A DNA stretch of 64,000 bases from an uncultured Candidatus Saccharibacteria bacterium. GTDB lineage: Bacteria > Patescibacteriota > Minisyncoccia > Phycocordibacterales > CAIZIN01. The translations under genes and the position numbers were made by a program. Shown here piece after piece: positions 1-64,000 of the stretch; the stretch's first letter is position 1, and the number at the start of each line of letters is the position of its first letter. The notes below the pieces were generated by a model. It saw nothing but the letters and a program-made list of their open reading frames with translations. It was not told the DNA's origin and did no database searches. The stretch covers positions 6,560 to 70,559 of the forward strand of contig CAYWWA010000002.1 of NCBI GenBank assembly GCA_964462115.1, in the 5' to 3' direction.

Positions 1-148
1 AGCAGTGTCCGTGGTTAACAGGTTTATTATCCAAAAAAGCCAAAGTGTGTTCATCTTCGTAGACTTTATGACTAGGTAATTCGCCAGAAATGATTTTACA
101 AAATACACAGTCGTTTGCAAAATCTTCATTTTGATTAATTTTATTCAT
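1..148 (-). CDS. HIT-family (histidine triad) protein, N-terminal part; gene continues past window start
   Basis: Reverse-strand translation gives MNKINQNEDFANDCVFCKIISGELPSHKVYEDEHTLAFLDNKPVNHGH, a typical HIT/HinT N-terminus; ATG at 146-148. Confidence 0.6.
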   Translation of the reverse strand, partial: MNKINQNEDFANDCVFCKIISGELPSHKVYEDEHTLAFLDNKPVNHGHC

Positions 149-154
149 TTTTTA

Positions 155-163
155 ATTTTAACA
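155..163 (-). promoter_or_regulatory. Extended -10 (TGTTAAAAT) 6 nt upstream of the HIT ATG; leaderless
   Basis: Reverse complement of 155-163 is TGTTAAAAT; spacing to ATG is 6 nt. Confidence 0.4.
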
Positions 164-186
164 AAAAATGCAAAAAAATAAAAAAA

Positions 187-195
187 TGTTATAAT
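187..195 (+). promoter_or_regulatory. Extended -10 (TGTTATAAT) 7 nt upstream of the pgk ATG; leaderless
   Basis: TGTTATAAT at 187-195, ATG at 203, no SD. Confidence 0.45.
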
Positions 196-202
196 CATTT
201 AT

Positions 203-1351
203 ATGAAAACAATTCAAGATTTAATTAAGCTTGGCGATTTATCGGGTAAAAGAGTTTTGCTCAGAGCTGATTTTAATGTGCCGATGGAAGCAGGGAAAAT
301 TACTGATGATTTTAGAATTATTTCTACCTTACCGACCTTAGAAAAATTACAACAAGCTGGTTTGAAAATTATTATTATTGCTCACATCGAACCCAACAAG
401 GAGGGTGAGACAGCGACGCTTCAACCAGTGTTTGCTGAGCTTCAAACTAAATTGGCTGACAAAATATTTTGGGCTGAAAATCTTGAAGCAGTTAGTGAAA
501 AATTATCTTCCTTACAAAATGGGGAAATTATCCTGATGGAAAATATCCGTCAATACGAAGGAGAAAAGAAAAATTCAGCAGAATTGGCCGAGCAGTTAGC
601 TGGTTTGGCTGATTTTTACATCAATGATGCTTTTTCAGTTTGTCACAGAAAACACAGTTCTATTGTCGGGGTGCCAGAACTATTACCTTCTTTTGCTGGA
701 TTGCAATTGGAAAAAGAGATAACCAATTTATCTCGCGCCTTTAATCCCGCCCGACCATTTGGTTTTATTTTAGGCGGCGCTAAATTTGAAACCAAATTGC
801 CTTTAGTAGAAAAATATTTAGACCGAGCTGATTGGGTCGCTATTGGTGGAGCTTTGGCTCACGATATTCTAAAGCAAAAAGGTAAAGAGGTTGGATTATC
901 TAAAGTCTCAAAAGAAGCGGTGGACTTAACTAGGGTGGTAAGTAGCGAGAAATTATTAGCAATTATAGATGTGGTAGTGGTAAATGATAAGCAAGAAATC
1001 AATATAAAAAAACTTGACGATGTTTTACCTACCGATTCCATCAACGATCTTGGGCCAGAAACGGTGGCAGCTTGGGGACAAAAAATTGGTCAAAGTAAAT
1101 TTATTTTATGGAATGGGCCAGTGGGCTGGTTTGAACGTAAAGAATTTGCGGTTGGTACTAATGCTTTGGCTCAGTTTTTGGTAGATAGTGGCGCTGAAGT
1201 CTTGGTGGGGGGTGGAGATACGGTTTCGGCTATTACCCAAATTGGACTTCTCCATGATTACAGTTTTGTCTCTACCGGCGGTGGCGCTACTTTAGATTTT
1301 TTGGCCAACGAAACTCTACCTGGAATTGAGCTAATTGGTAAAAAAAATTAA
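203..1351 (+). CDS. pgk: Phosphoglycerate kinase
   Basis: N-terminus KRVLLRADFNVP and overall PGK architecture, 382 aa. Confidence 0.9.
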   Translation: MKTIQDLIKLGDLSGKRVLLRADFNVPMEAGKITDDFRIISTLPTLEKLQQAGLKIIIIAHIEPNKEGETATLQPVFAELQTKLADKIFWAENLEAVSEKLSSLQNGEIILMENIRQYEGEKKNSAELAEQLAGLADFYINDAFSVCHRKHSSIVGVPELLPSFAGLQLEKEITNLSRAFNPARPFGFILGGAKFETKLPLVEKYLDRADWVAIGGALAHDILKQKGKEVGLSKVSKEAVDLTRVVSSEKLLAIIDVVVVNDKQEINIKKLDDVLPTDSINDLGPETVAAWGQKIGQSKFILWNGPVGWFERKEFAVGTNALAQFLVDSGAEVLVGGGDTVSAITQIGLLHDYSFVSTGGGATLDFLANETLPGIELIGKKN

Positions 1352-1403: not shown

Positions 1404-1619
1404 TTATTTTTTTCCTAGCAATCGCTCAAGCTGGCTTTTGACCTCCAGCTCGTTATGACGTGCTGAGTCGGGTAACATTACCCGCTTGCCGTCACCATCC
1501 AAATGAGTGATGGCCCAGGTTCCGACCTGGGCATCGTGGAGAGAGCAATACCTGAAGGCTGTATCTAGCCTGTCAGAATCAACCCTCTCAAGTTTCAGAT
1601 CACTTCTGTTTGTTTTCAT
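1404..1619 (-). CDS. Hypothetical small protein (71 aa), GC-rich, SD-led
   Basis: Internal Met preceded by AAGGAGG 7 nt upstream; local GC well above background; product MKTNRSDLKLERVDSDRLDTAFRYCSLHDAQVGTWAITHLDGDGKRVMLPDSARHNELEVKSQLERLLGKK has no recognised family. Confidence 0.5.
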   Translation of the reverse strand: MKTNRSDLKLERVDSDRLDTAFRYCSLHDAQVGTWAITHLDGDGKRVMLPDSARHNELEVKSQLERLLGKK

Positions 1620-1723
1620 CTTTACTCCTCCTTGAGTAATGTACAAAAAATCCTACACGTTTTTTTGGAACAAGAACAGTAATTCATGGGAGCTTATTTC
1701 AGTCACTAAAGACTTCCCACATC

Positions 1724-1732
1724 TTACCATTA
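1724..1732 (-). promoter_or_regulatory. Extended -10 (TGGTATAAT) on minus strand about 100 nt upstream of the small GC-rich ORF
   Basis: Reverse complement of ccattatacca gives TGGTATAATGG. Confidence 0.35.
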
Positions 1733-1868
1733 TACCATATTTATTTTTTGGATAAACATTTTTTATCTGATGCCGTTAAAAAAACTTATTAAATAAGGCT
1801 TATTGCGAAATAGAAAAAATTGTCGATTAAAAGCGACAAAAAATACACTTATAATTTTCTCCATTTTA

Positions 1869-1877
1869 TGTTAGACT
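1869..1877 (+). promoter_or_regulatory. Extended -10-like TGTTAGACT 6 nt upstream of the gatB ATG (1884)
   Basis: TGtTAGACT then gtgtca then ATG. Confidence 0.35.
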
Positions 1878-1883
1878 GTGTCA

Positions 1884-3347
1884 ATGACAAATGAAGAATT
1901 TTTGAAAATAAAAGAAAAATATGAGTTAGTGGTGGGTTTGGAAGTTCACGCCGAGCTGAAGACTAAGACTAAAATGTTTTGCGCTTGTGTTAACGATCCG
2001 GATGAGAAAGAAGCAAACCTTAACACTTGTCCAATTTGTTGGGGTCATCCTGGCACACTGCCAGTGGTCAACAAGGAAGCTTTTAAATCAATGATAAAAA
2101 TTGGTTTGAGTGTAGGTGGTAAAATTGCCGATTTTACTGAGTTTGATCGTAAAAACTATTTTTATCCAGACATTCCTAAGGGTTATCAGATTTCTCAATA
2201 TAAATATCCGATTGTCTCGGGTGGAACTTTAGCCGGGGTAGAATTAACTCGTATTCACTTGGAAGAAGATACCGGCACCTCACAGCATGATAAGGGAGAT
2301 TTTTCTTTAGTGAACTACAATCGCGCAGGAGTGCCACTGATGGAGCTGGTTACCGAACCAGTGATTCATTCAGCTGAAAAGGCTACCGAATTTGCCACCG
2401 AATTGCAATTATTGTTGCGAACCTTAGGGGTAGCAGAAGCTAATATGGAGAAAGGGCAGATGCGAGTGGAGGCTAACATTTCAGTGCGACTTAAGGGTGC
2501 AGAAAAATTTGGCACCAAGGTTGAGGTGAAAAATTTAAACTCATTTAAATCAGCTGGACGGGCTATTGAGTTTGAGCAGAGGCGGATGATTGAACTATTG
2601 GAAAGTGGGCGAGGTGATGAAATTGTGCAGGAAACCAGAGGTTTTAATGAAGACAAAGGCTCGACTTTTTCTCAGCGCAAAAAAGAAAACTCCAACGATT
2701 ATCGATATTTTCCTGAACCAGATATTCCTAAGTTTTATATTTCGCAAATTCCAGAGTTTCAAGCGGAAGTTTTACGAGGAGAAATTCCTGAACTGCCTTG
2801 GCAGAAGCGGGAGCGATATGAAAAAGAATTTGGCATTAAAAGCGAGGATGTAGAATTATTTGTGCGAGAAAAAGTGTTGGGGGATTATTTTGAAAAAGTT
2901 ATTGCAGATTTTGCTGGAGCGAAAGCAAAAGTGGTTTTAGCCTCAAACTATATTTTGTCAGACTTGATCGGTTTAGCCAGTCGAGAGAAAATTGGCATTG
3001 AGATTATTTTGGAAAAAGTAAACGATAAAACATTGGCTGAAGTGGTTAATTTGCTTGCGGACAAAAAAATCTCTTCTCGTGGAGCCAAGGATATCTTGCA
3101 GATAATTTACAAAGAGGGTGGTGAACCAACTCAAATCGCTGAAGCTAAAGGTTTGATAATTAAAAAAGATCCAGAATTGCTCAAAAAAATAATTGAGGAA
3201 ATCATTGCCGAAAATCCCCAAGTGGTTGCGGAATATAAATCAGGTAAAACTAACTTGATTCAGTTTTTGGTTGGACAGGGAATGAAAAAAATGAAAGGCG
3301 CCGGCGACCCAGCAGAAATCAAAGAGGGGTTGTTGGGGAAGGTTTAG
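1884..3347 (+). CDS. gatB: Asp/Glu-tRNA(Asn/Gln) amidotransferase subunit B
   Basis: YELVVGLEVHAELKTKTKMFCAC, CPICWGHPGTLP, 487 aa; ORF track starts at GTG 1878, ATG 1884 more likely. Confidence 0.9.
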   Translation: MTNEEFLKIKEKYELVVGLEVHAELKTKTKMFCACVNDPDEKEANLNTCPICWGHPGTLPVVNKEAFKSMIKIGLSVGGKIADFTEFDRKNYFYPDIPKGYQISQYKYPIVSGGTLAGVELTRIHLEEDTGTSQHDKGDFSLVNYNRAGVPLMELVTEPVIHSAEKATEFATELQLLLRTLGVAEANMEKGQMRVEANISVRLKGAEKFGTKVEVKNLNSFKSAGRAIEFEQRRMIELLESGRGDEIVQETRGFNEDKGSTFSQRKKENSNDYRYFPEPDIPKFYISQIPEFQAEVLRGEIPELPWQKRERYEKEFGIKSEDVELFVREKVLGDYFEKVIADFAGAKAKVVLASNYILSDLIGLASREKIGIEIILEKVNDKTLAEVVNLLADKKISSRGAKDILQIIYKEGGEPTQIAEAKGLIIKKDPELLKKIIEEIIAENPQVVAEYKSGKTNLIQFLVGQGMKKMKGAGDPAEIKEGLLGKV

Positions 3348-4997: not shown

Positions 4998-5016
4998 GCA
5001 TTTTATATTAAAATAT

Positions 5017-5025
5017 GGTATAATG
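5017..5025 (+). promoter_or_regulatory. Extended -10 TGGTATAAT with -35 TTGCAT, 5 nt upstream of the folD ATG
   Basis: TTGCAT-N17-TATAAT, ATG at 5031. Confidence 0.5.
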
Positions 5026-5030
5026 TAAAG

Positions 5031-5831
5031 ATGTGTGAAGAGTTACGGGGTAAGGAAATATCCTTGCAAATCAAGGACAATCAGGTAAAAACGGTGCTTG
5101 GTTTTAAAAAAAATGGCATTTTTCCATGTCTTTGTATTGTGCGCGATTCACAAAATCCTGTGATTGAAAAATATGTTCAGTTGAAGAAAAAATATGGTGA
5201 AGAGATTGGGGTTAGAGTTGAAGATATTTTAGTTAAAACAGATGAGTTGGCTGAAACTATTGAAAAACTAAATCAAGATGAAAAAGTCAACGGTTTAATC
5301 TTGCAATTTCCTATTCTGGATAAAGATAAAGGTGACGAATTAAGCAATTTAATCGCTGCCCACAAAGATGTTGATGGTTTGAATGAAAAAAAAAGCAATT
5401 TTAATTCCGCTACCGCTGAGGCAATTTTGTATTTATTGGAAAAAAATAATATTGATTTATTAAACAAGAAAATTGCTTTAGTAGGCTGTGGCAAACTGGT
5501 AGGACGTCCGTTGATTAAAATATTTACTGAACGAAATTATAATTTTGAAATTTTTCGGTCAAAAGATGAGGCAAAATTAGCAAAAGAATTACCTGGGTTT
5601 GATATAATCATCACAGCGGTGGGGAAGGCTAATTTACTTACTTCAGCGATGATTAAGGATGGTGCCATAGTGGTAGATGCTGGCACAGCCTGCGAAGATG
5701 GTAAAATCTTAGGAGATGTCTCAGACTGCGTTCGTGAGCGAAACAATGTTAAAATATCAGCTAAAATTGGTGGGGTTGGGCCACTTACGATTACTATACT
5801 TTTTGCTCATTTGATAGAAACCTGTGAATAG
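5031..5831 (+). CDS. folD: Bifunctional methylene-THF dehydrogenase/cyclohydrolase
   Basis: VGCGKLVGRPL NAD(P) motif, DAGT, C-terminal GGVGPLTITIL. Confidence 0.8.
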   Translation: MCEELRGKEISLQIKDNQVKTVLGFKKNGIFPCLCIVRDSQNPVIEKYVQLKKKYGEEIGVRVEDILVKTDELAETIEKLNQDEKVNGLILQFPILDKDKGDELSNLIAAHKDVDGLNEKKSNFNSATAEAILYLLEKNNIDLLNKKIALVGCGKLVGRPLIKIFTERNYNFEIFRSKDEAKLAKELPGFDIIITAVGKANLLTSAMIKDGAIVVDAGTACEDGKILGDVSDCVRERNNVKISAKIGGVGPLTITILFAHLIETCE

Positions 5832-7531: not shown

Positions 7532-7540
7532 TGCTATAAT
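7532..7540 (+). promoter_or_regulatory. Extended -10 TGCTATAAT 7 nt upstream of ATG 7547; leaderless
   Basis: TGCTATAAT motif recurs across the window at the same distance from start codons. Confidence 0.5.
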
Positions 7541-7546
7541 TTTCTT

Positions 7547-9076
7547 ATGGACAACAAGTCTTCATCGCCATTTCGGGATTATTATTTTAATCGGGCTCAG
7601 CTAGAGAATAATAAAACTGAATATTTGTCATTCTTATCGGCTCTAAGGGTATTTGTAAATGCCATCAGAGATTATAAGAAGGGCGAAATTTTAAGCACTA
7701 AAGATTTTGTAGAATTTGTTAAGGTTCATAATGAAAATAATATTGAGTTAAATGATGTTGGGCCGTTTGCTAAATTAGATCAAGCGGTTAATTTTATGAC
7801 TGTGCACAAAGCAAAAGGTTTAGAGTTTGAAACAGTCTTTATCTTATCAGTCATTGATAGTGTTTGGGGCAAGGAAAGCCGAGCTAATAAATTAGCAATG
7901 CCGCTTAATTTAAAATTAAAATCTGATAGTGAAGACAATGACGATGATTGTTTGCGCTTATTTTTTGTAGCATTGACCAGAGCAAAGAAAAATTTATACA
8001 TCAGCTCTTTTGCTCAAAAAGATGATGGTAAAGAGGCGAACAAATTAAAGTTTTTATCGGGAACTGAAAATGAAGAAAAACTAAAATTGATTGATAAAAA
8101 TTATAATCAAAAAAATGAATCCATAGTTCCTGACGCTACTCTAGTCTTGGAGTCATCGTTGTTAGAGAATCAAAATCCACCAGTGGAATTTGTGGCTGAT
8201 GAAAAAGAACTATTAAAAACCTTAGTTAAAGATTATAAAATCTCTGTCACTCACTTAAATAATTTTCTAGATTTAACTAATGGTCATGGAGCAGAAAATA
8301 ATTATGGCCCACTATATTTTTTGGAGAATAATCTGTTAAGGTTTCCCTCAGGAAAAAGTTTGTCGGGTAGTTTCGGCTCCGCTATCCACTTTGCGCTAGA
8401 AAGGGCAATCAAAAATTTTAAAAAATCTGAGTCAAGCAAAATTGATAAGATAGTATCGGAGCAGGATTTATTCAAATGGTTTGAACAGAGTTTAAAAAGA
8501 GAAAAAATGTCTAAAATAGACTTTGCTAAATATTACGAGCGGGGAGTTTTTGCTTTGAAAAAATTTTGGCAAGAAAATAAAGATGATTTTAAAGTTAGCG
8601 ATTGGTCAGAATTTAGTTTTGCGAACGAGGGGGTAAAAATCGGTCAAGCTGTTCTTAATGGTAAGATTGATCGAATTAGTCAAACAGAAAAAGGGATTTT
8701 AGAGGTTTTTGATTTCAAAACCGGCAAAGCATTGAGAAAGTGGGGAAAGGATATCAAATCAATAAACTACAAGAGACAGTTGATTTTTTATAAAATTTTA
8801 GTTGAAAACTCTAAAAGTTTTGGTGATCAATTTGTGGTTCCTAAAGGAGAACTAGTTTTTATTGAACCAGACGAAAATGGGGAATTAACTCGATTGGCTT
8901 TAGAAATTGATTCTGATGAGGTAGAAAAGTTAAAGAGTTTACTTGATATTGTTTATACTAAAATTATCTCGTTAGAATTTCTAGATGAGGAGTTTCTGCA
9001 AAAACTATATAAATATCCTAAAACCATAGAGGGCAATCAACAGTTTGAACATGATTTATTAAATGGGCTAATCTAA
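7547..9076 (+). CDS. C-terminal half of a UvrD/PcrA-like SF1 helicase fused to a RecB-family PD-(D/E)xK nuclease domain
   Basis: Helicase motifs V/VI (FMTVHKAKGLEFETVF, RLFFVALTRAKKNLYIS); nuclease motifs GKIDRI, VFDFKTGK, QLIFYKIL; no Walker A or motifs I-IV. Confidence 0.7.
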   Translation: MDNKSSSPFRDYYFNRAQLENNKTEYLSFLSALRVFVNAIRDYKKGEILSTKDFVEFVKVHNENNIELNDVGPFAKLDQAVNFMTVHKAKGLEFETVFILSVIDSVWGKESRANKLAMPLNLKLKSDSEDNDDDCLRLFFVALTRAKKNLYISSFAQKDDGKEANKLKFLSGTENEEKLKLIDKNYNQKNESIVPDATLVLESSLLENQNPPVEFVADEKELLKTLVKDYKISVTHLNNFLDLTNGHGAENNYGPLYFLENNLLRFPSGKSLSGSFGSAIHFALERAIKNFKKSESSKIDKIVSEQDLFKWFEQSLKREKMSKIDFAKYYERGVFALKKFWQENKDDFKVSDWSEFSFANEGVKIGQAVLNGKIDRISQTEKGILEVFDFKTGKALRKWGKDIKSINYKRQLIFYKILVENSKSFGDQFVVPKGELVFIEPDENGELTRLALEIDSDEVEKLKSLLDIVYTKIISLEFLDEEFLQKLYKYPKTIEGNQQFEHDLLNGLI

Positions 9077-9391: not shown

Positions 9392-9400
9392 TGTTATCAT
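9392..9400 (+). promoter_or_regulatory. Extended -10 TGTTATCAT 7 nt upstream of ATG 9408
   Basis: Same TGnTAT..AT pattern and spacing as other genes. Confidence 0.4.
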
Positions 9401-9407
9401 CAGAATC

Positions 9408-12756: not shown

Positions 12757-12762
12757 TTGTTT

Positions 12763-12771
12763 AGTATAACA
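12763..12771 (-). promoter_or_regulatory. Extended -10 TGTTATACT 6 nt upstream of the flippase ATG
   Basis: Reverse complement gives tTGtTATACTaaacaaATG. Confidence 0.4.
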
Positions 12772-14212: not shown

Positions 14213-14221
14213 TGCTATAAT
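14213..14221 (+). promoter_or_regulatory. Extended -10 TGCTATAAT 6 nt upstream of ATG 14228
   Basis: atatgctataatatatagATG. Confidence 0.5.
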
Positions 14222-14227
14222 ATATAG

Positions 14228-16366: not shown

Positions 16367-16372
16367 TGACCG

Positions 16373-47910: not shown

Positions 47911-47927
47911 ATAAAACTATGCATGTT

Positions 47928-49844: not shown

Positions 49845-50033
49845 TATCCAGATAAAATACCATAGTTTTTATTAAAAATCAAACAGAATATTTTATATGC
49901 CAATAACACATCCTCTTTATAAAGAGCAAATTATACGCCAATTTTTTAAACGATAAAAGCTAAATTCTATTGAGTCATTTAAGTTAAATAACAATTTATG
50001 CTATAATAGCCAAATTAAGCAAGCTTAAGACCT

Positions 50034-56700: not shown

Positions 56701-57201
56701 AAAGACGATGGTAATCTTTGTATCTTCATCTACCTCTGTATTTTGCTCTGGAAAAACTGCTTCAATTTTAGGATTTTCTGCTACCAAAATATCACCAGAC
56801 ATTTTTAAATTAGCTGTTTCTAGAGAAACATTATAGTAAGTTCCAATTTCTAAATCCTTTTTCGGTTTATAAAGAAGAGCTTGTTCTAAATTATCCCCTT
56901 CAATCTCTACCCAATCACCAGCTATTTTAGGTTCAAAAGAAATATTTTCACGAGCTTCATCTGAAGTAATTTCATTTGGTAATTTAATAGTAATAACCGC
57001 CGATTTAGAAATTGACTCCGGCACAAAGGTTTCCACCACTGCTACTTCTCCAGTATATTTTTTAACACTGTGATCAGAAATATAAAAAGAAAAAAATATA
57101 ATTAAAATCAATGAAATAAAAGTAGAAATAATAATAAAAATCGGCTTGTTTCTGTTTTTATTTTCAACAGACAAACCGGAAACCATTTCTTGATTTTTCA
57201 T
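50767..57201 (-). CDS. Bacterial alpha-2-macroglobulin family protein (2144 aa) with N-terminal TM anchor and thioester motif
   Basis: NYPYGCSEQLTSAM (CxEQ thioester), very large beta-rich ectodomain, divergent from a pbpC-like gene as in yfhM-pbpC; ATG at 57201 sits 6 nt after a TGCTATAAT. Confidence 0.75.
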   Translation of the reverse strand: MKNQEMVSGLSVENKNRNKPIFIIISTFISLILIIFFSFYISDHSVKKYTGEVAVVETFVPESISKSAVITIKLPNEITSDEARENISFEPKIAGDWVEIEGDNLEQALLYKPKKDLEIGTYYNVSLETANLKMSGDILVAENPKIEAVFPEQNTEVDEDTKITIVFNRPMVALTTLDQQENGEGLLAQVAAAFSEPKNNLPISISPKVDGKWKWTTTRQLQFLPKDKLNPATRYTVEIGQLTSIEGLTVDPVSFTFDTRHLRLDNKTSEKISHKSPFFLHYNQEVDIDSIKSDIEITTSSGDKSEIILEYGTSKKYDKKAKKYLEVEDKSKINIYQKTDKYGHKKSWDYDTSYSVKVGLVSTLKGNLPFSDSQNYSFFVGNILSGFNIITQNGYSGDKNIFDPNDQIEVVFTEEINKDKTEFKVKGLKKVEYQQNCKTETDKDGYLREIKNGLTDECIKVDDKQRIVLSFNANEFGLNEQLQIILPKIVLSDGSEYISKADNVSGHFTTYPKFQIYNTLPKNNDKDASLTEMIICSNSPIKKPGEEGMRTHLSVVENYIVYNNWRGSYMVEGDYNQCQNGQYQTSIKYGLLPESYYLMNLNLEDVFGQKINQSLEFNTTKPKHIYKHIYNLQKQYNVTTPDKTKLTFAVENLTFVDLQICKMNATDFLEVLGSLSIKQPAPNKCTEIKTARIDLPKTYFVNNYFQIDLKDYFADTRGQFVITLNNPDYTYVSDYYAEDFEVPRFEHVYLSVSNLAVGKKEVNRDHYEEKIKPQDNLIENSKNIYWVNNAKTLLPIAGAIVSQYKHVNGIWDQTAFGDGLTLSDTNFTDQDGIAKLKIENYVDGAVISYNNENAIISDWADTLGSNWTTAEYALKTYLYTDRPIYRPGDVVYFKGIQRLGFDGNYEILKDQEIQVSIRDSGWDQVFATTLKNNKYGSFAGEFTLPKDAKLGSYQINTASDGYFNFSVEEYTPAAFKLEAVTDKEEYLSGDTLNLSLQADYYFGVPLDSGNVSYTITEQDYYFDKYTDEYFSFGSGWYYCYNCDYGDKYLLRGETSLNTDGQAIIKQELKLSDNDEKSKIITVSVSVQDASGKTISIQKSFIVHRGEYYIGAKTDKYYTNVDGENKLRIKTVDTFGKPISVSNLIAKIKKISYEIYKRQEVDGGYYYHYDKSTTEVKTIKLGTDKNGNYINDFSIAEEGEYEIEIVGSDNRKNNISTTISLYIYGDKTVQVPPNNNYSLDLVVEKNELKVGDMATILIKSPAAKAKALITIERGVIFDYKIIDVIGGLAEYSFLIKENYAPNIFVSVLLLTDEPEIKFGNVDFGVNSDAKKIFLSVKSDKTFYLPGENVNLQIESKDEKNNPVQSEVSVAVVDMSVLALKGNPKKNPWLHFYNYFYNTINTTHNLKNILYEMDIPTGTKGGGGGNGAEDLASKKRGEFKDTAFWIAQAETDQKGLTQLSFTLPDNLTTWQAEVVAQSLDSKFGASYAEFTTKKDLMVSPIKPRFIVPGDNFELGATVFNQTNKSVSVKVSLQSKDLNLLEKTERIIKINAGKSEIIYFNVEAPTTLVEGQVTFTLKAELNDSVDEVEQTIKITPNQTYETVSTANMTNQNISKEYFYIPENVLADKGGITINTNATLVVFLQDALKYMVNYPYGCSEQLTSAMSSVAILSSVYDLKNVDGEIGTINKDGIDYTIDDIINSTLKKIYATQKLDGGFSYYPSIYYSNFYLTLRVVEGLLVIKNAGFAIDEEYLNKALKYIETEANNRYTQREIDKDTLIGAGFLLNLSGKKYTVINSIVSSFISDKQYLNENISSPALAYLAIMYPNNQEIYKQFTNRLSIDGRGAYFKPGKNTSYNLYETSIKNTALALKVFVAHQDKNVMISNIMKWLLASRNNQGAWGNTQNTFEVIDAMVQYLKWQKENEADFDLIGTLNGDELFNFNFGGQNIFETQSQFLSINDLERKKVLPLTFLKIDNTKNKNNFYYDILFKYYLPVQNLPARDEGLGVVREFFRLDDEEQKIPILSAKVGDVIKGRLTLTVPFNAADIAIEDYIPAGFEIVNFSFATEDQSLIRHTSLDNRFYPSVEENHDDRIFLYSERVNSGVYQYEYYLRALVPGKYQHLPAKIESLYMPDIFGRSRGNTFVVEK

Positions 57202-57207
57202 CACTCA

Positions 57208-57216
57208 ATTATAGCA
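57208..57216 (-). promoter_or_regulatory. Extended -10 TGCTATAAT 6 nt upstream of the A2M ATG
   Basis: Reverse complement gives gtttTGCTATAATtgagtgATG. Confidence 0.45.
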
Positions 57217-57278
57217 AAACCAGTACAAAAAAACTGCTTTTTGTGTAAAAGTATTTTTGTGATATGATTTAGCTGTAA

Positions 57279-59393
57279 ATGAAGATTTTTTTGAAAAAAA
57301 TTAAAAAATATAAAAAAAAATTATCTATCTTCTCTATTTTTATCATTATTTTTTTTAGTTTTTCTCTATTTTTATTATTTGACATAAAAGAAAAATATCA
57401 AAACAATTTATCCGTAATCATATATGACAGGAACGAAGAAATTATTTCCATCAAAACAAATATTAAAGATCATTATGTCTATGAAACCAAAGAAATACCA
57501 GATGATTTAGAAAAATTACTACTCAAGAAAGAAGATAGATATTTTTACTGGCATTTTGGAGTTAACCCAGTCAGCAACCTGCGAGCGTTGTGGCAGATTT
57601 CAACCATTCAAAAACATGGCGGGGCCTCCACCATTACCCAACAACTAGCTAAAAACCTACTTGGCAACGAAAATAATCGAACATTTTATAATAAAATCAA
57701 AGAATTATTCTACACTTTTAATTTAGAATTATTTTTTTCTAAAAAAGAAATTTTAACAATGTATGCTAATACTACTTTTTTTGGCAATCAAGCTCAGGGT
57801 TTTGAAACAGCATCACGCATGTATTTCAATAAAGATCTAGCCAAACTAAATCACAATGAGCAAATTTCTTTGCTTGCCACAATCTCTTATCCCAATAATC
57901 GTAACCCATGGAAAGATAGCGAACAAAAATTTGCTACAGCTTTAAATCAACAGATCTCGCCAGACGAAACTTTTACAAAACCGCTGATCAATAAAAATTT
58001 TAATTTTCAAAATGAAGCCAATTTTGAATTAAGCTCTATTGGATTTTCTTGCGAAAAAAGCTGCCGCACCACTATAGATGTAAAAATTACTGAAAAAATT
58101 CGTCAAATTATTAAAGAGTATACCGACAAAGAAAGTTCGCGCGGTGCAAAAAATTCCTCTGTGGTTGTGATTGATCCCAGAAGTGAAGAAATAATTGCTA
58201 TAGTTGGTAGTGTAGATCCTAGTTCTACAAGAAATGGTAATAAAATAAATATGGCAATTAAACCGCGACCGATCGGTTCCACTATCAAACCATTAATGTA
58301 TCTTAAGGGTTTTGAAGATGGTTTGAGACCTTATACCATAGTAGAAGATCGTGAATATAAATATCAAATCGGACTTGGGTTCGCCCAATATCCCAAAAAC
58401 TATGACGGAGCATATCAAGGAGAGGTTTCTCTACATTATGCCTTAAGCAACTCTCTTAATGTACCGTCTGTTAAAGTTTTGGAATATATTGGTTTAGAAA
58501 AATTTTACAATTTTTTAGATCAAAAATTAAAATTTGAACCAATTCAAGATTATGATAATTATCAATATGGTATCGCTCTTGGTGGTCTAGAAATGGACTT
58601 AACTACCCTCACCCACTATTTTACTATTTTTCCACGTTTAGGAAATATCGCCCCGCTTAAGATTTCAACTGATGGGCAAAATAATTTTAAATTGGCTCCA
58701 CAAAATAAAATTGAATCATATCAAGAAATTTCTGATAAAAAATATGTAGCACTAATTCATAAAATAATTTCTGATCGTCTTACTGGTGTTGGTCAATTTT
58801 CACTGGAAAGTTCGCTCAATTTGCCAATAAAAGATTATGGAGTTAAGACCGGAACCTCTCGCGATTGGCATGATTCGTGGGTTGTTGGATATACCGGTGA
58901 TTTTGTTGTGGGGGTTTGGGTTGGTAATACAGAAAACACTTCACTGCAACAAATTTCTGGCGCCCAAGGAGCTGGAGTTGTTTGGAATCAAGTAATGAAC
59001 CTAATGATTAATTCAAAATATAACCACCAAACATCCATTAATACAAGCGATGTTATGCCAATTAAAATCAATAATTCTATTGAATGGGGCCTTACTGATG
59101 ACGATATTGAATTAAGTAAAAATCTGATGAAAGAAGATATTTTAATCTTGTCACCACACGACGAAGATAAGTTTGAATTTGAAAAAACAAAATCTATCCC
59201 ACTAAAAAGTTCACAGCTAGTAGAGTGGACCATTAAAAAACTAACTAACACTGGCGACAAAATTATCTTTTCCGACAGTAAAAAAGAAAGTTTTTGGCAA
59301 CCAAGCGAATCTGGTTATTATCAAATTTTTGCTAAAAATCCGGAAACAAATTTTTCTCAAACTATCTATATTAAAATTCAAGCCGATAAATAG
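57279..59393 (+). CDS. pbpC: Class A penicillin-binding protein (GT51 transglycosylase plus transpeptidase), PbpC-like
   Basis: GT51 motifs EDRYFYWHFG, GGSTITQQLAKNL, KEILTMYANTTFFG; transpeptidase SIGSTIKP (SxxK), SNS, KTGTS; 704 aa; adjacent to A2M. Confidence 0.75.
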   Translation: MKIFLKKIKKYKKKLSIFSIFIIIFFSFSLFLLFDIKEKYQNNLSVIIYDRNEEIISIKTNIKDHYVYETKEIPDDLEKLLLKKEDRYFYWHFGVNPVSNLRALWQISTIQKHGGASTITQQLAKNLLGNENNRTFYNKIKELFYTFNLELFFSKKEILTMYANTTFFGNQAQGFETASRMYFNKDLAKLNHNEQISLLATISYPNNRNPWKDSEQKFATALNQQISPDETFTKPLINKNFNFQNEANFELSSIGFSCEKSCRTTIDVKITEKIRQIIKEYTDKESSRGAKNSSVVVIDPRSEEIIAIVGSVDPSSTRNGNKINMAIKPRPIGSTIKPLMYLKGFEDGLRPYTIVEDREYKYQIGLGFAQYPKNYDGAYQGEVSLHYALSNSLNVPSVKVLEYIGLEKFYNFLDQKLKFEPIQDYDNYQYGIALGGLEMDLTTLTHYFTIFPRLGNIAPLKISTDGQNNFKLAPQNKIESYQEISDKKYVALIHKIISDRLTGVGQFSLESSLNLPIKDYGVKTGTSRDWHDSWVVGYTGDFVVGVWVGNTENTSLQQISGAQGAGVVWNQVMNLMINSKYNHQTSINTSDVMPIKINNSIEWGLTDDDIELSKNLMKEDILILSPHDEDKFEFEKTKSIPLKSSQLVEWTIKKLTNTGDKIIFSDSKKESFWQPSESGYYQIFAKNPETNFSQTIYIKIQADK

Positions 59394-59407: not shown

Positions 59408-60325
59408 TTATTCACTTTTAGGAATCCCCAACTGGATTAAACCATCACTTTCTTCCAAACATTTTTCAATCGCTTCAGATAATCTTTCCTTAATTCCTTC
59501 TGCCTTGTAGTTGTTGGCCATCTTTTTAATTTCAGAAATATAAAATTCATCCACCAAAACCGCGATATCGTGTTTTTTGTTTTTAGCTAAGTCAATCCGT
59601 TCACGAAGTTTTTGTTCTGCTCCATCAATCAAAACGTCTTCATAGCCTTTGCTCAATAAATCATACAGCAGTTGGTAATATTCACCCTTACGCCCAACCA
59701 CTAGCGGGGCGTAAAGTTTAATTTTTAAATCATTAACTTCCACCCCAAAGACTTTTTTATCAATTTTACTTGTATCAATCTCTCGCACTAATTTAATGAT
59801 GGTTTGTAAAATTTCTTCACGAGATAGTTTTTTAATTTCACGACCACATTCCAAACAGTGTGGTTTACCAATTCGAGCGTATAAAACTCGTAGGTAGTCA
59901 TAAATTTCAGTGATGGTAGCAACAGTCGAACGCGGATTGTTGGAGTGAGTTTTTTGATCAATTGAAATTGCAGGAGATAAACCAGTAATTTCATCAACAT
60001 CTGGTTTTTGCATTTGATGTAAAAAACGACGAGCATAAGAAGATAAACTTTCCATATATCGCCTCTGCCCTTCCGCAAAAATAGTATCGAAAGCCAAAGA
60101 TGATTTTCCTGAACCAGACAAGCCGGTGATAGCTACAATTTTATTTCGTGGCATTTCCACCGTGATATTTTTCAGATTATGAGTCCTGGCTCCTTTCACT
60201 ACGATTTTATCATCTACTTCTCGTCCAGCCACTGTTTTTTTGCTAGATTTTATTTTTTTTTCACTCTCAGCATGAAAAAGCCGACTAGAACCGCTTGCAG
60301 CCTTATCTTGGACTTTCTTTGACAT
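59408..60325 (-). CDS. uvrA: UvrA N-terminal fragment (305 aa: first Walker A, UvrB-binding/insertion region)
   Basis: [60 protein letters not shown]; ends at the point where the 47985-49844 ORF resumes; TGaTATACT 9 nt upstream of ATG. Confidence 0.8.
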
Positions 60326-60451
60326 AATTCGATAAGTATATCATAAAAAGTGAAAAAACACACTAGAGCTATCTTGGATTGGTTCATAAAAAATATTTTT
60401 TAACAAATAAAATTAGTTGTATTTTTTCCTAAAAAACATTAAAATAAGCTG

Positions 60452-63400
60452 ATGGAAAACAACAATGATAAACCAGTTTTTGTACACCTGCACACTCATT
60501 CTCACTACACACTACTTAACGGTTTACCCAAAGTTCCTGACCTATTGAAAGTAACCCGTAAATATAATATGCCCGCTTTGGCTATTACTGAAAGTGGCAA
60601 CATGTATTCCGCTATTGAATTCTACGAACAAAGTAAAAAAACTAAAGACAAAAAAGGTAACGAACTGGCCCCAGTCAAAGCAATTATTGGGGTGGATTTT
60701 TACCTCTCTCCTCGCACTCGCAAAGATAAAGAAAGTCCGATTGATTTAGAAAAAACTCGCTTGGTATTGTTGGCCAAAAATTTTAATGGCTATCAAAATT
60801 TAATGCGTTTAGTTTCGGCTTCATATCTGGAAGGTTTTTTTGATGGTAAACCCAGAATTGATCGCGAGCTCTTAGAAAAATATCACCAAGATCTTATCGC
60901 TATCATGCCAGATTTTAATGGCGAATTATCTAATATGATTCGCCGTGAAGCTGAAGCAAGTGCTCAAGAAATTTTATCTTTTTATCACCACGTTTTTGCT
61001 GATGATTTTTATCAAGAAATTACTCACCATATTGAAATCGCCGGTCACGAAGAAGGTGTGAAAAAAATAATTGCTTGGAGCCGTCAAAATAAAGTTCAAT
61101 TAGTAGCAGCGCACGATGTCTATTATATCAACTCTGAGGATAAAGCAGCGCGTGATTTAGTGGTAGCAATTGGCAAAAAAAAGAAGCTATCAGAAATGAC
61201 TGATGACGAAGACGCGGATTTTTCCTTTATCTCCCAAGAACAAGCAGCTGAAGCTTTTAAAGATGAGCCTGAAGCTCTATCAAACACCGTTAAGATTGCA
61301 GCGCAATGTAATTTTGAAATTGCATTAGGGGAGTGGAAATTTCCCAACTACATTGTCTCGGACGCGGAAATAGATTTTTCCGATTTAGATCCTGAATTAC
61401 GAAAAATTTCTGATGAACATCTACCCGATTATTGTCGAGATCAAAACAATCCTCTTTACAAACACGATTTAGCTTTACGCAAAATTGCCTACCGAGGAAT
61501 TAAGCTGCGCAATTTGGAAGCAAACCAAGAGGTAATTGATCGCTTAGAATATGAACTTAAAGTCATCCATGACAAAGGTTACCCGCAATATTTCTTAACC
61601 GTGGCAGATTTATTACAGTTCTCTGATGAGCACAATATCTATACCAACATCCGAGGATCAGTGGCTGGTTCACTTACTACTTATTTGACTTATATTACTA
61701 AAGTTAATCCCTTAGAATTTAAACTTCCCTTTGAACGTTTTCTGAACCCCGAGCGTCCGTCAGCTCCCGATATCGATATGGATTATGCCGATAATCGTCG
61801 AGATGATGTGATTGCTTATGCTCGAGGTAAATATGGCGATGATCGAGTGGGACAAATTGGCACCTTTGGCACCATGGCTGCACGTGGAGCAGTTAAAGAT
61901 GTAACTCGAGCTTTAGGCTATAGCTACTCTATAGGTGATCGACTTTCTAAAATGATCCCTATGGGTAAACAAGGAAAAACCGTAGAACTAAAAGATGTGC
62001 TCACCGAAGGTAAAGACAGTTATTCTCCCGAACTGAAAGAGGTTTATGACAGCGATGACAGTGCTAAAACCATTATTGATTTAGCGATGCAAATTGAAGG
62101 TAACGCTCGCCAGGTATCCATGCATGCCGCGGGAGTGGTTATTGCTCCCGGCCCCATTACCGACTATGTACCAATTCAGTTTGACTCTAAAACTGGAGAT
62201 AAAATTATCACTCAATACGAAATGCATGCGGTGGGAGAAGATGGGGTTGGTTTATTAAAGTTTGACTTTTTGGGTATTAAAAATTTATCCATTTTGGCCG
62301 ATGCTGTTAGAAGGATTAAGGAAACCGAAGGGGTGGAAATTGATATTGAAAAAATCCCCTTTGATGATCAAAAAGTTTTTTCTGCTCTTTCTCGTGGTGA
62401 AACTATGGGAGTCTTTCAGCTTGGTGGAGCGGGTATGACTAAATATCTGATGGAACTTAAGCCTACCACCATGTTTGATATTAACGCGATGTTGGCACTT
62501 TATCGTCCAGGGCCAATTGATGAAATTCCAACTTACATTGATGTTAAACATCATCCAGAAAAAATAAAATATATGGATCCCAGAATGGCTGAATATTTAG
62601 ACCAGAGTTACGGACTATTAGTTTATCAGGATGATGTGATGATGACCGCAATCAAACTGGCTGGTTATTCTTGGTTGGAAGCGGACAAATTCCGTAAGGC
62701 CATGGGTAAAAAAATCCCCGAACTGATGGCCGAGCAAGAAATCAAAATCCGCAAAGGTATGAAAGAATTCGGCCATTTAGATGAAAAATTGATTGATACC
62801 ATTTGGCAAAAAATGTTGCCGTTTGCCTCGTATGGATTCAACAAGGCTCACGCCGCTTCTTATGGTCACCTATCATACCAAACCGCTTATCTCAAAACCC
62901 ATTACCCCGCCTGCTATATGTCGGCAGTAATGACGGCTGACGCCGGAGACGTAGAAAAAATTGGTGCCTTCGTGACCGAGTGTAAAAACATTGGAGTAGA
63001 AATTCTTCCTCCCGATGTTAACGAAAGTATGAAAGAGTTTGCGGTTATCAAGGAAAATACAGCCGATAAGGCTTCACGGAAGGAGGTTATCCGTTTTGGT
63101 CTATTGACTATTAAAATGTTCGGTTCCCATATCTCCGATGTGATTATTGAAGAACGAAACAGAAATGGAAAATTCCTGTCTTTGGAAGATTTTTTAACTC
63201 GGATTACCGACAAAGATTTAAATAAAAAAAGTTTGGAAAGTTTAATTAAATGTGGAGCTTTAGATAAATTAGGTGAACGAGGAGAAATGTTGGGTAATGT
63301 AGAATATCTGTGTGAATTCCAACGCCAATTCATCAACAAACCAGAAGGACAGGCTGACTTGTTTGGCGATAGCGATGTTAAAGTCTCATCGTTGAAACTC

Positions 63401-63829
63401 AAAACAATGCGCGAGGCTTCTAAAGATGAAATGTTGATGTGGGAAAAAGAGTTGTTGGGTTTATATATTTCTGGACACCCAATTGATAAATATGAAGAAG
63501 CTTTGTCTCGTCGAGGAGCTACTTTAAAGCAAATCAAACAAACTGCTCGCAACGAACAAACCGTAGTAGCAACCGGCTTAGTTGAATCAATTAGAGAAAT
63601 AAGCACCAAAAAGGGTGATAAAATGGCTTTTGTGCTGATGAGAGATCAGAACGAAGAATTGGAGGTAGTATTTTTTCCTAAAGCTTATCAAAAATTTAAA
63701 AACATTTTAGCAAGCAACATTTGCTTATCGGTCAAGGGCAAATTTAACCAACGAGAAGATTTGGGTGATGTTAAATTTTCAGTTTTGGTGGATGAAGCAA
63801 AAATAATTGATAATAGTAGTGTAAAATAA
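60452..63829 (+). CDS. dnaE: DNA polymerase III alpha subunit
   Basis: PHP domain FVHLHTHSHYTLLNG; polymerase core and OB fold; 1125 aa. Confidence 0.9.
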   Translation: MENNNDKPVFVHLHTHSHYTLLNGLPKVPDLLKVTRKYNMPALAITESGNMYSAIEFYEQSKKTKDKKGNELAPVKAIIGVDFYLSPRTRKDKESPIDLEKTRLVLLAKNFNGYQNLMRLVSASYLEGFFDGKPRIDRELLEKYHQDLIAIMPDFNGELSNMIRREAEASAQEILSFYHHVFADDFYQEITHHIEIAGHEEGVKKIIAWSRQNKVQLVAAHDVYYINSEDKAARDLVVAIGKKKKLSEMTDDEDADFSFISQEQAAEAFKDEPEALSNTVKIAAQCNFEIALGEWKFPNYIVSDAEIDFSDLDPELRKISDEHLPDYCRDQNNPLYKHDLALRKIAYRGIKLRNLEANQEVIDRLEYELKVIHDKGYPQYFLTVADLLQFSDEHNIYTNIRGSVAGSLTTYLTYITKVNPLEFKLPFERFLNPERPSAPDIDMDYADNRRDDVIAYARGKYGDDRVGQIGTFGTMAARGAVKDVTRALGYSYSIGDRLSKMIPMGKQGKTVELKDVLTEGKDSYSPELKEVYDSDDSAKTIIDLAMQIEGNARQVSMHAAGVVIAPGPITDYVPIQFDSKTGDKIITQYEMHAVGEDGVGLLKFDFLGIKNLSILADAVRRIKETEGVEIDIEKIPFDDQKVFSALSRGETMGVFQLGGAGMTKYLMELKPTTMFDINAMLALYRPGPIDEIPTYIDVKHHPEKIKYMDPRMAEYLDQSYGLLVYQDDVMMTAIKLAGYSWLEADKFRKAMGKKIPELMAEQEIKIRKGMKEFGHLDEKLIDTIWQKMLPFASYGFNKAHAASYGHLSYQTAYLKTHYPACYMSAVMTADAGDVEKIGAFVTECKNIGVEILPPDVNESMKEFAVIKENTADKASRKEVIRFGLLTIKMFGSHISDVIIEERNRNGKFLSLEDFLTRITDKDLNKKSLESLIKCGALDKLGERGEMLGNVEYLCEFQRQFINKPEGQADLFGDSDVKVSSLKLKTMREASKDEMLMWEKELLGLYISGHPIDKYEEALSRRGATLKQIKQTARNEQTVVATGLVESIREISTKKGDKMAFVLMRDQNEELEVVFFPKAYQKFKNILASNICLSVKGKFNQREDLGDVKFSVLVDEAKIIDNSSVK

Positions 63830-63837
63830 AAAAACAC

Positions 63838-63863
63838 CGGTCAGATAGATCGGTGCGAGAAGA
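63838..63863 (-). terminator. Minus-strand intrinsic terminator (caccgatctatctgaccggtg plus T5)
   Basis: The hairpin is followed by a T-run only in minus orientation. Confidence 0.4.
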
Positions 63864-64000
63864 ATTCAGGCTTGTTTACTTTTTGCGTGCCAATACCCCG
63901 CCATCTTCAAAGCGAGATAGGCAGGAATTATACAAACCAGAGATACAACCAAGTGAACGTGTTTCTGGTTGACGCACAAAAAAACTAGGTTAAGCAATGC

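Follow-up and report, generated by a model that had tools for sequence, protein, structure and literature searches.

How do genes begin when promoter-like TGnTATAAT elements seem to stand almost on top of their start codons? The question arises from the 64,000-nt stretch of DNA analysed here (the window), part of a small, AT-rich genome of the candidate phyla radiation (CPR), a group of ultrasmall bacteria. In it, the initial annotation had placed extended -10 elements 5–10 nt before at least 20 ATG codons and had proposed two expression regimes, one leaderless and one served by Shine-Dalgarno (SD) sites. We consider it likely, reasoning from sequence, that most operon heads are leaderless or nearly so, with extended -10 promoters and SD-less initiation. 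This reading draws on the position specificity of the motif, its restriction to heads, the use of ATG alone as start codon, homology-backed N-termini, upstream neighbours too close to allow a leader and the presence of the pattern in related loci.

The pattern TGNTATAAT has 20 matches in the window against 4.6 ± 2.2 in dinucleotide-preserving shuffles (maximum 13; 4.3-fold enrichment), and TATAATNNNNNNATG (TATAAT-N6-ATG) has 11 against 1.5 ± 1.2 (maximum 5); neither observed count was reached by any shuffle. TATAAT-like hexamers might nevertheless lie near many ATGs by chance in DNA of 36% G+C. TANNNT does precede 15% of random ATGs in the window at 5–10 nt (5.7% at 6–7 nt), 6 of the 20 TGNTATAAT matches fall inside genes, approximately the chance expectation, and scanning the first 20 kb for generic -35/-10 pairs was hardly informative (82 sites versus 64.5 in shuffles). 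Against this stands a motif-blind test, for which the first ATG was taken from each of 47–48 non-overlapping long ORFs. It gave a single sharp peak in the distance from -10 box to ATG, at 6 nt, where 12/47 ORFs have a match to TATAAT of at least 5/6, 13/48 have TANNNT and 7/48 have TGnTANNNT. The peak recurs in related loci and is missing from AT-rich loci outside the CPR. The shuffles and the spacer peak refute a compositional artefact, to which we attach negligible probability; the adjacency of -10 box and ATG is real and far above chance.

The motif also distinguishes first genes from later ones. Among 36 curated transcription-unit heads, TANNNT lies 6–7 nt before the ATG of 16, 9–10 nt before that of six more and 3 nt before one, compared with 1 of 17 curated operon-internal genes at 6–7 nt. 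TGnTANNNT was found 3–10 nt upstream of 16/36 heads, 29/1601 other ATGs and 0/17 internal genes (Fisher p = 2.8e-17), and Fisher tests of heads versus all other ATGs gave p values from 1e-10 to 1e-17. The spacer is 6 nt in 13 genes, 7 nt in three and 9–10 nt in six (Table 1); the last six probably have leaders of 2–4 nt rather than zero. All 23 candidates start with ATG, and non-AUG codons are known from E. coli and mycobacterial studies to be poor start codons without a leader. The initial claim of an extended -10 stands for enrichment, spacing and 16/36 heads and fails for 7 of the 23 start-proximal boxes, which lack the TG carried by the other 16 (dedA, the genes at 28213 and 30201, ftsW, gltX, dnaE and rpoD). 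These seven are plain hexamers in 64% A+T DNA. Its list of examples named a HIT gene, which we did not find in the window, and lacked dnaE, rpoD and PBP1. The 3-nt spacer of the 960-aa gene does not fit the leaderless pattern; whether this gene has an unusual start site or an 8–9-nt leader to ATG 47912 is ambiguous.

Table 1. Start-proximal -10 elements and contrasting loci in the window.
Feature	Coordinates	Strand	Promoter elements	Spacer (nt)	ATG	Other features
pgk	187..205	+	TGtTATAAT	7	203	NCBIfam profile aligned from residue 2
gatB	1869..1886	+	TGtTAGACT	6	1884	GatB profile from ORF residue 13
folD	5016..5033	+	TTGCAT-N17-TGgTATAAT	6	5031	FolD profile 1-263 aligned to 1-275
Helicase-nuclease, C-terminal part	7532..7549	+	TGcTATAAT	6	7547	Bidirectional terminator 7490-7525, ending 21 nt 5' of ATG
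MYG1/UPF0160	9392..9410	+	TGtTATCAT	7	9408	
Flippase	12754..12771	-	TGtTATACT	6	12756	Divergent from nfeD, 71 nt ATG to ATG
lepA G-domain gene	14213..14230	+	TGcTATAAT	6	14228	20-bp terminator hairpin 14149-14191, ending 36 nt 5' of ATG; residues 3-185 aligned to LepA profile 2-183
dedA	16361..16375	+	TATAAT, no TG	6	16373	
rpoD	20382..20422	+	TTGACA-N16-TATACT	10	20420	Predicted 5' UTR about 1-4 nt
P-type ATPase	21773..21794	+	TGtTAAAAT	10	21792	Terminator hairpin ending 26 nt 5' of ATG; Cation_ATPase_N domain from ORF residue 25
fmt	26612..26629	-	TGtTATAAT	6	26614	Back to back with amidase promoter, 88 nt ATG to ATG
Amidase	26687..26705	+	TGcTATAAT	7	26703	
UvrD-type helicase, N-terminal part	28201..28215	+	TATAAT, no TG	6	28213	1111-aa orthologue in L067 has TATACT 7 nt 5' of ATG
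504-aa Cys-repeat gene	30189..30203	+	TATAAT	6	30201	
glyS	33924..33944	+	TTGAAA-N17-TGgTATATT	9	33942	
ftsW	38350..38364	-	TATAAT	6	38352	Pfam domain aligned from residue 10
gltX	40576..40590	-	TACAAT	6	40578	Terminator hairpin ending 25 nt 5' of ATG
960-aa secreted protein	47922..47936	-	TGcTATAAT	3	47924	
uvrA, C-terminal part	49842..49862	-	TGgTATTTT	9	49844	
Alpha-2-macroglobulin (A2M)	57199..57216	-	TGcTATAAT	6	57201	Divergent from PBP1, 77 nt ATG to ATG
PBP1	57260..57281	+	TGaTATGAT	10	57279	
uvrA, N-terminal part	60323..60343	-	TGaTATACT	9	60325	
dnaE	60440..60454	+	TAAAAT	6	60452	PHP domain from residue 12
Contrast, SD-led	1404..1737	-	TGgTATAAT	109		AAGGAGG, then 71-aa ORF from 1619
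Contrast, leadered (rplJ)	17363..17515	+	TTGCAT-N17-TGcTATAAT	141	17513	Rfam L10 leader; weak AAGG
Contrast, internal cistrons (rpsN-rpsH-rplF-rplR-rpsE-rplO-secY operon)	40653..44563	-				Internal genes without -10 box and without SD
Contrast, SD-led	44838..45003	-	TTGACA-N17-TGcTATAAT	27		Spacer with GGGAGGTGA, then 35-aa Arg/Lys-rich ORF, 63% GC

Several starts in the ORF track proved too long, as had been noted initially: gatB moves from GTG 1878 to 1884, the amidase from 26694 (an ATG within the -10 box) to 26703, gltX from TTG 40602 to 40578, A2M from GTG 57204 to 57201, the ATPase from TTG 21753 to 21792 and glyS from 33882 to 33942. These six starts were chosen partly by the -10 box, which is circular; four of them (gatB, glyS, gltX and the ATPase) are also backed by family-profile or homologue alignments, and for the amidase and A2M the motif is the sole basis. 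For GlyRS, 14 of 15 homologues start at or after the position matching Met-21 of the window protein, and this alignment places the true start at 33942, making the public 489-aa protein (start 33882) about 20 codons too long.

Alignments of this kind bear on the idea that the boxes are real promoters and that the true starts lie further downstream, behind ordinary SD-less leaders as in Bacteroidota. Leadered genes without SD do occur in the window (pyk with a 49-nt spacer, rsmG with 26 nt, nfeD, rpsN, rplJ and the 6476 gene), ATG 47912 of the 960-aa gene is as plausible as its first ATG, and the N-termini of rpoD and the N-terminal uvrA part leave 40–70 residues outside the family models. However, family profiles begin within 1–12 residues of the proposed Met in nine genes (pgk, folD, lepA, fmt, ftsW, dnaE, MYG1, gatB and the ATPase), the GlyRS homologues agree, and a random relation between promoter and ATG gives no single 6-nt peak. 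We consider downstream starts improbable.

SD use was scored as anti-SD duplex energy with a cut-off of -6 kcal/mol, assuming the canonical anti-SD, as the window is without a 16S 3' tail. On that assumption, 3/53 gene starts reach the cut-off compared with 8.8% of random ATGs, in keeping with the initial observation that start-proximal genes lack SD sites, and so do 0/16 internal cistrons of the motif-blind set. Among the curated internal genes, a doubtful ABC NBD gene alone reaches it. Still with the canonical anti-SD, internal and leadered genes in the window do not in general use SD sites. The SD minority described initially is confirmed as about five genes, mostly small (1619, 44945 and 28048 on the minus strand, 18548 and, weakly, 5950). 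It does not include rplJ, which had been given as a classic SD gene and has a weak AAGG only, while its long leader, matching the Rfam L10 family, was confirmed. The division into leaderless and SD-led regimes therefore gives way to at least three regimes, with SD near-absent throughout the window.

Internal cistrons are tightly packed, with stop-to-start gaps mostly of -10 to +13 nt (-1 to +13 in the rpsN-secY operon, with A-rich upstream tracts), and show A-rich sequence from -12 to -2. Downstream of the ATG, the first 35 nt are rich in A and less structured than internal windows (-2.1 and -1.6 versus -3.3 kcal/mol, p = 0.008). This accords with leaderless starts, but weak structure and A-richness near starts are features of genes in general.

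Could the TA-rich motif itself act in translation, as an SD-independent signal on a longer mRNA (for instance an A/U-rich enhancer or an S1 site), with no promoter there? An SD-less genome might need some other signal to recruit ribosomes, and the A-rich tracts of the internal genes could be read in this way, but the motif is missing from 17/17 internal cistrons, and absence before internal genes is how GeneMarkS-2 separates promoters from non-SD ribosome-binding sites (PMC6028130). Further, TGnTAnnnT is spaced as a promoter would be upstream of all four tRNAs and the L10 leader, which are untranslated, and of the SD-led small genes; it is therefore the organism's promoter and no translation signal. 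The TG extension argues likewise, as do the TTGnnn boxes 16–17 nt upstream of the -10 in several heads, including the -35 boxes at folD, rpoD and glyS that bear out the initial report of such boxes at some genes, and the terminators directly 5' of the motif. A translation signal is thus very unlikely. Many boxes have no TTGnnn at 16–18 nt, and at some a terminator occupies the -35 position. At four heads a terminator hairpin ends 21–36 nt 5' of the ATG, and in four divergent pairs just 71–126 nt separate the ATGs, so that upstream terminators or divergent partners leave no room for a leader.

The promoter reading extends to the primary sigma factor. RpoD (20420..21715, plus strand) has RIPVHMVE as region 3.0, in which we take the His and Glu to correspond to H455 and E458 of E. 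coli sigma-70, the readers of the extended -10 TG; by sequence, these TG-reading residues are kept. The start sites of 49 bacteria cluster around a position 7 bp 3' of the -10 box, and enrichment of TG one base 5' of the hexamer is widespread (PMC12641261). With a 6-nt spacer, the 7-bp rule predicts the A of the ATG as the start site. The window resembles the extended -10 promoters of E. coli, many Gram-positives and Campylobacterota in its TGnTATAAT consensus and sigma region 3.0 motif, and perhaps in a -35 that is weak or dispensable, and differs from them in that the promoter is fused straight to the start codon in most transcription units.

Among other loci, the spacer-6 peak was present in six Parcubacteria-like loci (14/91 ORFs; SD 2%) and absent from non-CPR loci, AT-rich ones included (1/196 ORFs). 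In 19 Saccharibacteria loci, including TM7i, TGnTANNNT likewise peaks at 6–7 nt before the first ATG (22/269 ORFs), and 33% of ORFs and 45% of internal genes have a duplex energy of -6 or stronger versus 8% of random ATGs; these look like ordinary genomes of GeneMarkS-2 group C. The SD share is 2–4% in the window and the Parcubacteria-like loci, and the window GlyRS is closest to Parcubacteria-type sequences.

Group C genomes have a Pribnow box 6–8 nt from the starts of operon-first genes and none before internal genes, with a leaderless share predicted at 40% of operons for M. tuberculosis and amounting to 167/262 genes for D. deserti (PMC6028130). The window shares with this group (Actinobacteria such as Mycobacterium tuberculosis and Streptomyces; Deinococcus-Thermus such as D. 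deserti) a box localised 6–8 nt before operon-first genes only and a large leaderless share, predicted at 16/36 heads on a strict count or 22–23/36 with leaders of up to 4 nt. It departs from it in that the remaining genes of group C use SD, whereas internal and leadered genes here are essentially without it, and in that known examples are mostly high in G+C, whereas the window is a CPR lineage with 36% G+C and an extended -10 consensus. In group B (Bacteroidota), a non-SD motif precedes all genes, internal ones included (PMC6028130). SD use at or below background is common to both; unlike group B, the motif here is a head-specific promoter, and internal genes show the A-rich tract alone. In Parcubacteria, CCTCCT is missing from about half of the 16S genes, overlapping with the group that lacks uL1 (PMC9297842), but the window keeps a few strong SD-like sites (AAGGAGG and GGGAGGTGA). 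A literature search found no published description of a leaderless promoter-ATG design in CPR, and the design would appear to be of a known kind (group C), newly seen in a CPR lineage.

We propose that the primary sigma holoenzyme would use extended -10 promoters (TGnTAtaaT) whose -35 is weak or absent and often replaced by the terminator of the upstream gene. In roughly 60% of transcription units the preferred start site, a purine 7 nt 3' of the -10, would either coincide with the A of the ATG (6-nt spacer) or fall within 1–4 nt of it (spacers of 7–10 nt). The resulting mRNAs would have no 5' UTR able to hold a ribosome-binding site, so ribosome and initiator tRNA would bind the 5'-terminal AUG directly; where the transcripts start and how ribosomes are recruited are both inferred. 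The gaps before SD-less downstream cistrons mostly span -10 to +13 nt, which makes termination-reinitiation or entry on unstructured A-rich RNA their most likely route to translation. Leaders would be kept for regulatory work, as with the L10 leader, and for a handful of small SD-led genes.

More tentative, and to our minds just short of an even chance, is that a whole CPR lineage (Parcubacteria/Paceibacteria-like, with this organism among them) has largely given up SD pairing, with first cistrons initiated at the 5'-terminal AUG of leaderless mRNAs made from ATG-fused extended -10 promoters and later cistrons served by reinitiation or A-rich entry. If so, this would account for translation initiation in Parcubacteria without an anti-SD motif, and a major bacterial radiation would have leaderless initiation as its default, as frequent as has otherwise been reported for Deinococcus and haloarchaea.

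Extended −10 boxes abutting start codons, as described in the initial annotation, were confirmed across the window. The motif TGNTATAAT was matched 20 times, compared with 4.6 ± 2.2 in dinucleotide-preserving shuffles, none of which reached 20, and TATAAT-N6-ATG was matched 11 times (1.5 ± 1.2 expected). For the motif search upstream of starts that the annotation had suggested, we used a motif-blind design, in which the first ATG of each long non-overlapping ORF was taken and its distance to any upstream −10-like hexamer was tabulated. The histogram had a single sharp peak at a spacer (the nucleotides between box and ATG) of 6 nt, where 12/47 ORFs had a hexamer matching TATAAT at five or more of six positions, 13/48 had TANNNT and 7/48 had TGnTANNNT, with the extended form found in 0–2 ORFs at other spacers. 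We then curated 36 transcription-unit heads (first genes) and 17 operon-internal genes; TGnTANNNT was found 3–10 nt before the ATG at 16/36 of the heads and 0/17 of the internal genes, compared with 29/1601 of all other ATGs (Fisher test, 2.8e-17). The spacer was 6 nt at 13 heads (gatB, folD, the 7547 nuclease part, flippase, the lepA G-domain gene, dedA, fmt, the 28213 helicase part, the 30201 gene, ftsW, gltX, A2M and dnaE), 7 nt at three (pgk, MYG1, amidase), 9–10 nt at six (glyS, both uvrA parts, rpoD, P-type ATPase, PBP1) and 3 nt at one (a 960-aa gene). Nearly all of the genes originally named were therefore retained and dnaE, rpoD and PBP1 are to be added, but the HIT gene was removed, as no HIT-motif ORF was found in any frame of the window, and the TG extension is absent in 7/23 start-proximal boxes.

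Coarser approaches were less useful: counting ATGs downstream of every TATAAT-like hexamer gave too much noise in related loci, the mixed spacers blurred an ATG-anchored positional profile over all 36 heads, and a generic −35/−10 scan returned scarcely more sites (82) than shuffled sequence (64.5). It is the extended −10 box that carries the information, rather than the −35 box. Six perfect copies of TGNTATAAT are intragenic or antisense to the L10 leader (Table), a number close to chance expectation.

The TGnTAnnnT box is a promoter, based on five lines of evidence. First, each of the four tRNA genes has a box 9–16 nt upstream, giving predicted tRNA 5′ leaders of ~2–9 nt. Second, a box precedes the Rfam L10 leader upstream of rplJ. 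Third, several small ORFs led by a Shine-Dalgarno (SD) site have a box 27–109 nt upstream, often preceded at 17 nt by a perfect TTGACA or TTGCAT. Fourth, RpoD of the window retains the region 3.0 motif RIPVHMVE, which we take to hold the His and Glu that read TG in E. coli sigma-70. Fifth, an extended box never precedes internal cistrons, and restriction to heads is the criterion by which GeneMarkS-2 tells promoters apart from non-SD ribosome-binding sites (PMC6028130).

At gathering score, only the four tRNAs and the L10 leader were recovered from the window using Rfam; two weak additions at E ≤0.5, Plastid-ycf2 (overlapping tRNA-Met) and Thr_leader, were far under their gathering scores. Encoded CCA is absent from three of these tRNA genes. 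Two promoters that rank among the strongest of the window (TTGACA or TTGCAT, N17, TGnTATAAT) have a hairpin and T-run within ~45–65 nt and so would yield tiny RNAs, for which there was no Rfam match; the L10 leader at 17372 opens with the same 12 nt (TAAAAGATAGGG) as the 11226(−) transcript.

The spacing between box and start codon, together with several supporting features, suggests that transcripts would begin at the ATG. In a set of 49 bacteria, mapped start sites are centered 7 bp past the −10 box (PMC12641261), so that with a 6-nt spacer the predicted first base is the A of the ATG. This spacing also matches the 6–8 nt between Pribnow box and start in leaderless genomes of GeneMarkS-2 group C (PMC6028130), the class with frequent leaderless transcription. 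All 23 candidate starts are ATG, and the proposed Met is within a few residues of the family-profile start for pgk, folD, lepA, fmt, ftsW, dnaE, MYG1, gatB and the ATPase. An intrinsic-terminator hairpin ends 21–36 nt before the ATG at four heads (7547, the lepA G-domain gene, ATPase, gltX) and four divergent gene pairs have ATG-to-ATG distances of 71–126 nt, leaving little room beyond a −10 box. Predicted transcripts are also A-rich over their first 35 nt and have less structure there than in internal windows (p = 0.008), but gene starts in general share this property and it counts weakly here. At the six genes with 9–10-nt spacers, a purine 6–8 nt after the box gives a predicted 5′ UTR of 2–4 nt, still too short for an SD. 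Most of the 22–23 units would quite likely give mRNAs with a 5′ UTR of 0–5 nt on these in silico grounds, and the leaderless mode proposed in the initial annotation, which we infer from sequence, is strongly supported.

Automatic gene starts had also been suspected of being too long, and at least seven cases were found. For glyS, 14/15 aligned homologues begin at or after Met-21 of the window (ATG 33942), with one having a comparable N-terminal extension, indicating that the automatic start and the deposited 489-aa GlyRS of the source contig (P0001) are ~20 codons too long.

Some genes of the window are divided or reduced. UvrA is encoded by two separate genes 10 kb apart: the UvrA interaction domain is the last domain of the N-terminal part (59408-60325), whereas the C-terminal part (47985-49844) starts at the zinc-finger region. 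A UvrD/AddA-type helicase-nuclease is also divided between two genes far apart, and a separate leaderless-type promoter precedes every one of these halves. In L067, a related locus, the helicase-nuclease is a single 1111-aa ORF. The stop of lepA, reduced to a 187-aa G domain, overlaps the start of an ABC-F gene, and an ABC exporter is split into permease and ATPase ORFs with a 28-nt overlap and AGGAG before the second. The exporter may be truly split, or its two ORFs could reflect a frameshift or a programmed event.

The initial annotation had proposed two expression regimes, leaderless and SD-led, but SD sites proved too scarce for this dichotomy. Using duplex energy against an assumed canonical anti-SD, the threshold of −6 kcal/mol was reached at only 3/53 gene starts, less often than at random ATGs (8.8%); no 16S fragment was present in any of the fetched relative loci. 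Apart from the doubtful ABC ATPase ORF, no operon-internal gene of the window is preceded by an SD; these genes mostly have stop-to-start gaps of −10 to +13 nt and an A-rich tract at positions −12 to −2. Leadered pyk, rsmG, nfeD, rpsN and rplJ had no convincing SD either, and clear SD-like sites are limited to five genes (Table). The window is better described by three regimes: leaderless heads, cistrons that are coupled or leadered but have no SD, and a very small group of SD-led genes. Three small ORFs, unusually GC-rich for this genome, may encode genuine small proteins or instead correspond to structured RNAs. Those of 35 and 71 aa (49–63% G+C) each have their own strong promoter, leader and strong SD, and the 70-aa ORF lacks a clear promoter and shows just a weak AAAGG. 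No Pfam match was found for the 71- and 70-aa ORFs, and no Rfam family for any of the three regions.

Table. Positions of features in the window.
Feature	Position (strand)	Detail
TGNTATAAT, intragenic or L10-antisense	13196-13204(+)	52 nt before hflK; could be an internal promoter
TGNTATAAT, intragenic or L10-antisense	5600-5608(+)	
TGNTATAAT, intragenic or L10-antisense	22223-22231(+)	
TGNTATAAT, intragenic or L10-antisense	54079-54087(-)	
TGNTATAAT, intragenic or L10-antisense	61122-61130(-)	
TGNTATAAT, intragenic or L10-antisense	17492-17500(-)	
tRNA gene	9104-9176(-)	
tRNA gene	11313-11386(-)	
tRNA gene	25580-25652(-)	
tRNA-Met gene	44710-44786(+)	
Thr_leader, weak	4929-4995	
Putative tiny RNA	11150-11260(-)	
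Putative tiny RNA	33810-33896(-)	
71-aa ORF	1404-1619(-)	SD-like AAGGAGG
35-aa Arg/Lys-rich basic ORF	44838-44945(-)	SD-like GGGAGGTGA
70-aa ORF	17072-17284(+)	
137-aa gene	start 28048(-)	SD-like GGGAG
ABC exporter	18548-20334(+)	permease (18548): SD-like GGGAG in 14-nt spacer
5950 gene	start 5950	SD-like, weak
UvrA part	59408-60325(-)	
UvrA part	47985-49844(-)	
Helicase part	28213-30138(+)	
Nuclease part	7547-9076(+)	
lepA G domain	14228-14791(+)	
glyS over-extension	33882-33941(+)	
Upstream of rplJ-rplL	16373-17513	
rpsE/rplO junction	42375	

The 64-kb window has a G+C content of 32–39%, and profile searches identified tightly packed housekeeping genes (pgk, gatB, pyk, folD, rplJ-rplL, rpoD, fmt, glyS, ftsW, gltX, dnaE) and a ribosomal operon from rpsN to secY. 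The uL30 gene is absent and rplO directly follows rpsE, an arrangement reported to be universal in the candidate phyla radiation (CPR) (PMC9297842). Upstream of rplJ-rplL, dedA and ~500 nt of other sequence are found instead of rplK-rplA. The missing uL30 and rplK-rplA are compatible with, and no proof of, the Parcubacteria subgroup without uL1, which often also lacks the anti-SD. The closest helicase relatives in the genome search are Saccharibacteria at only 35–38% identity, and one metagenome contig is at 45%; with all relatives in the genome and metagenome collections at ≤45%, they are too distant for nucleotide-level footprinting of orthologous promoters. GlyRS shares 67–73% identity with proteins that carry the labels Taylorbacteria, Paceibacterota or Parcubacteria, so we treated the host as a CPR bacterium, probably Parcubacteria-like.

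Comparison loci comprised 6 Parcubacteria-like (collected via GlyRS homologues), 19 Saccharibacteria and 16 non-CPR loci (Omnitrophota, Chitinophagales, Planctomycetia). The Parcubacteria-like loci showed a single peak, with TGnTANNNT at spacer 6 in 14/91 ORFs, and 2% SD use. The Saccharibacteria loci peaked at 6–7 nt (22/269 ORFs) and used SD normally (33% of ORFs, 45% of internal genes), and in the non-CPR loci the box was at 6–7 nt in 1/196 ORFs. The unsplit helicase-nuclease orthologue of L067 has TATACT 7 nt before its ATG. As the peak recurs in relative loci, the start-abutting −10 architecture is characteristic of the lineage and not peculiar to the contig studied. A Saccharibacterium label, taken from the best helicase matches at 38%, was dropped considering the GlyRS identities and an SD-free pattern like that of the Parcubacteria-like, not the Saccharibacteria, loci.

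The window pattern is that of group C, established experimentally in Mycobacterium, Corynebacterium, Streptomyces and Deinococcus (PMC6028130). The predicted leaderless share of heads (44% strict, 61–64% if leaders of ≤4 nt are counted) falls in the upper range for bacteria, compared with 167/262 in D. deserti (PMC6028130). Unlike textbook group C, the window lacks SD on its remaining genes, has its extended −10 consensus in a low-G+C setting and belongs to a different lineage. In the open-access literature we found no report of leaderless architecture in Saccharibacteria, CPR, Patescibacteria or Parcubacteria; the TM7x transcriptome preprint contains no promoter or UTR analysis and a recent Patescibacteria perspective mentions neither promoters nor translation initiation. 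Through its use of GeneMarkS-2, the NCBI pipeline may already capture the pattern implicitly. The kind of architecture is known; its lineage-level peculiarity is the near-total absence of SD.

Gene-start annotation of this genome and its relatives needs a leaderless model. As genetic tools for Patescibacteria are just beginning (PMC11665869), we advise that expression cassettes carry TGnTATAAT 6 nt before the ATG instead of an added RBS; UTR-based control devices such as riboswitches would be unfit for most native genes. The anti-SD motif is missing from about half of Parcubacteria, and the available part of that survey does not address how they initiate translation (PMC9297842); leaderless heads with coupled internal cistrons offer a possible answer that would explain initiation there. 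Frequent leaderless initiation in a deep, ribosome-reduced radiation would also be a data point for the debate on whether this mode is ancestral or a product of streamlining.
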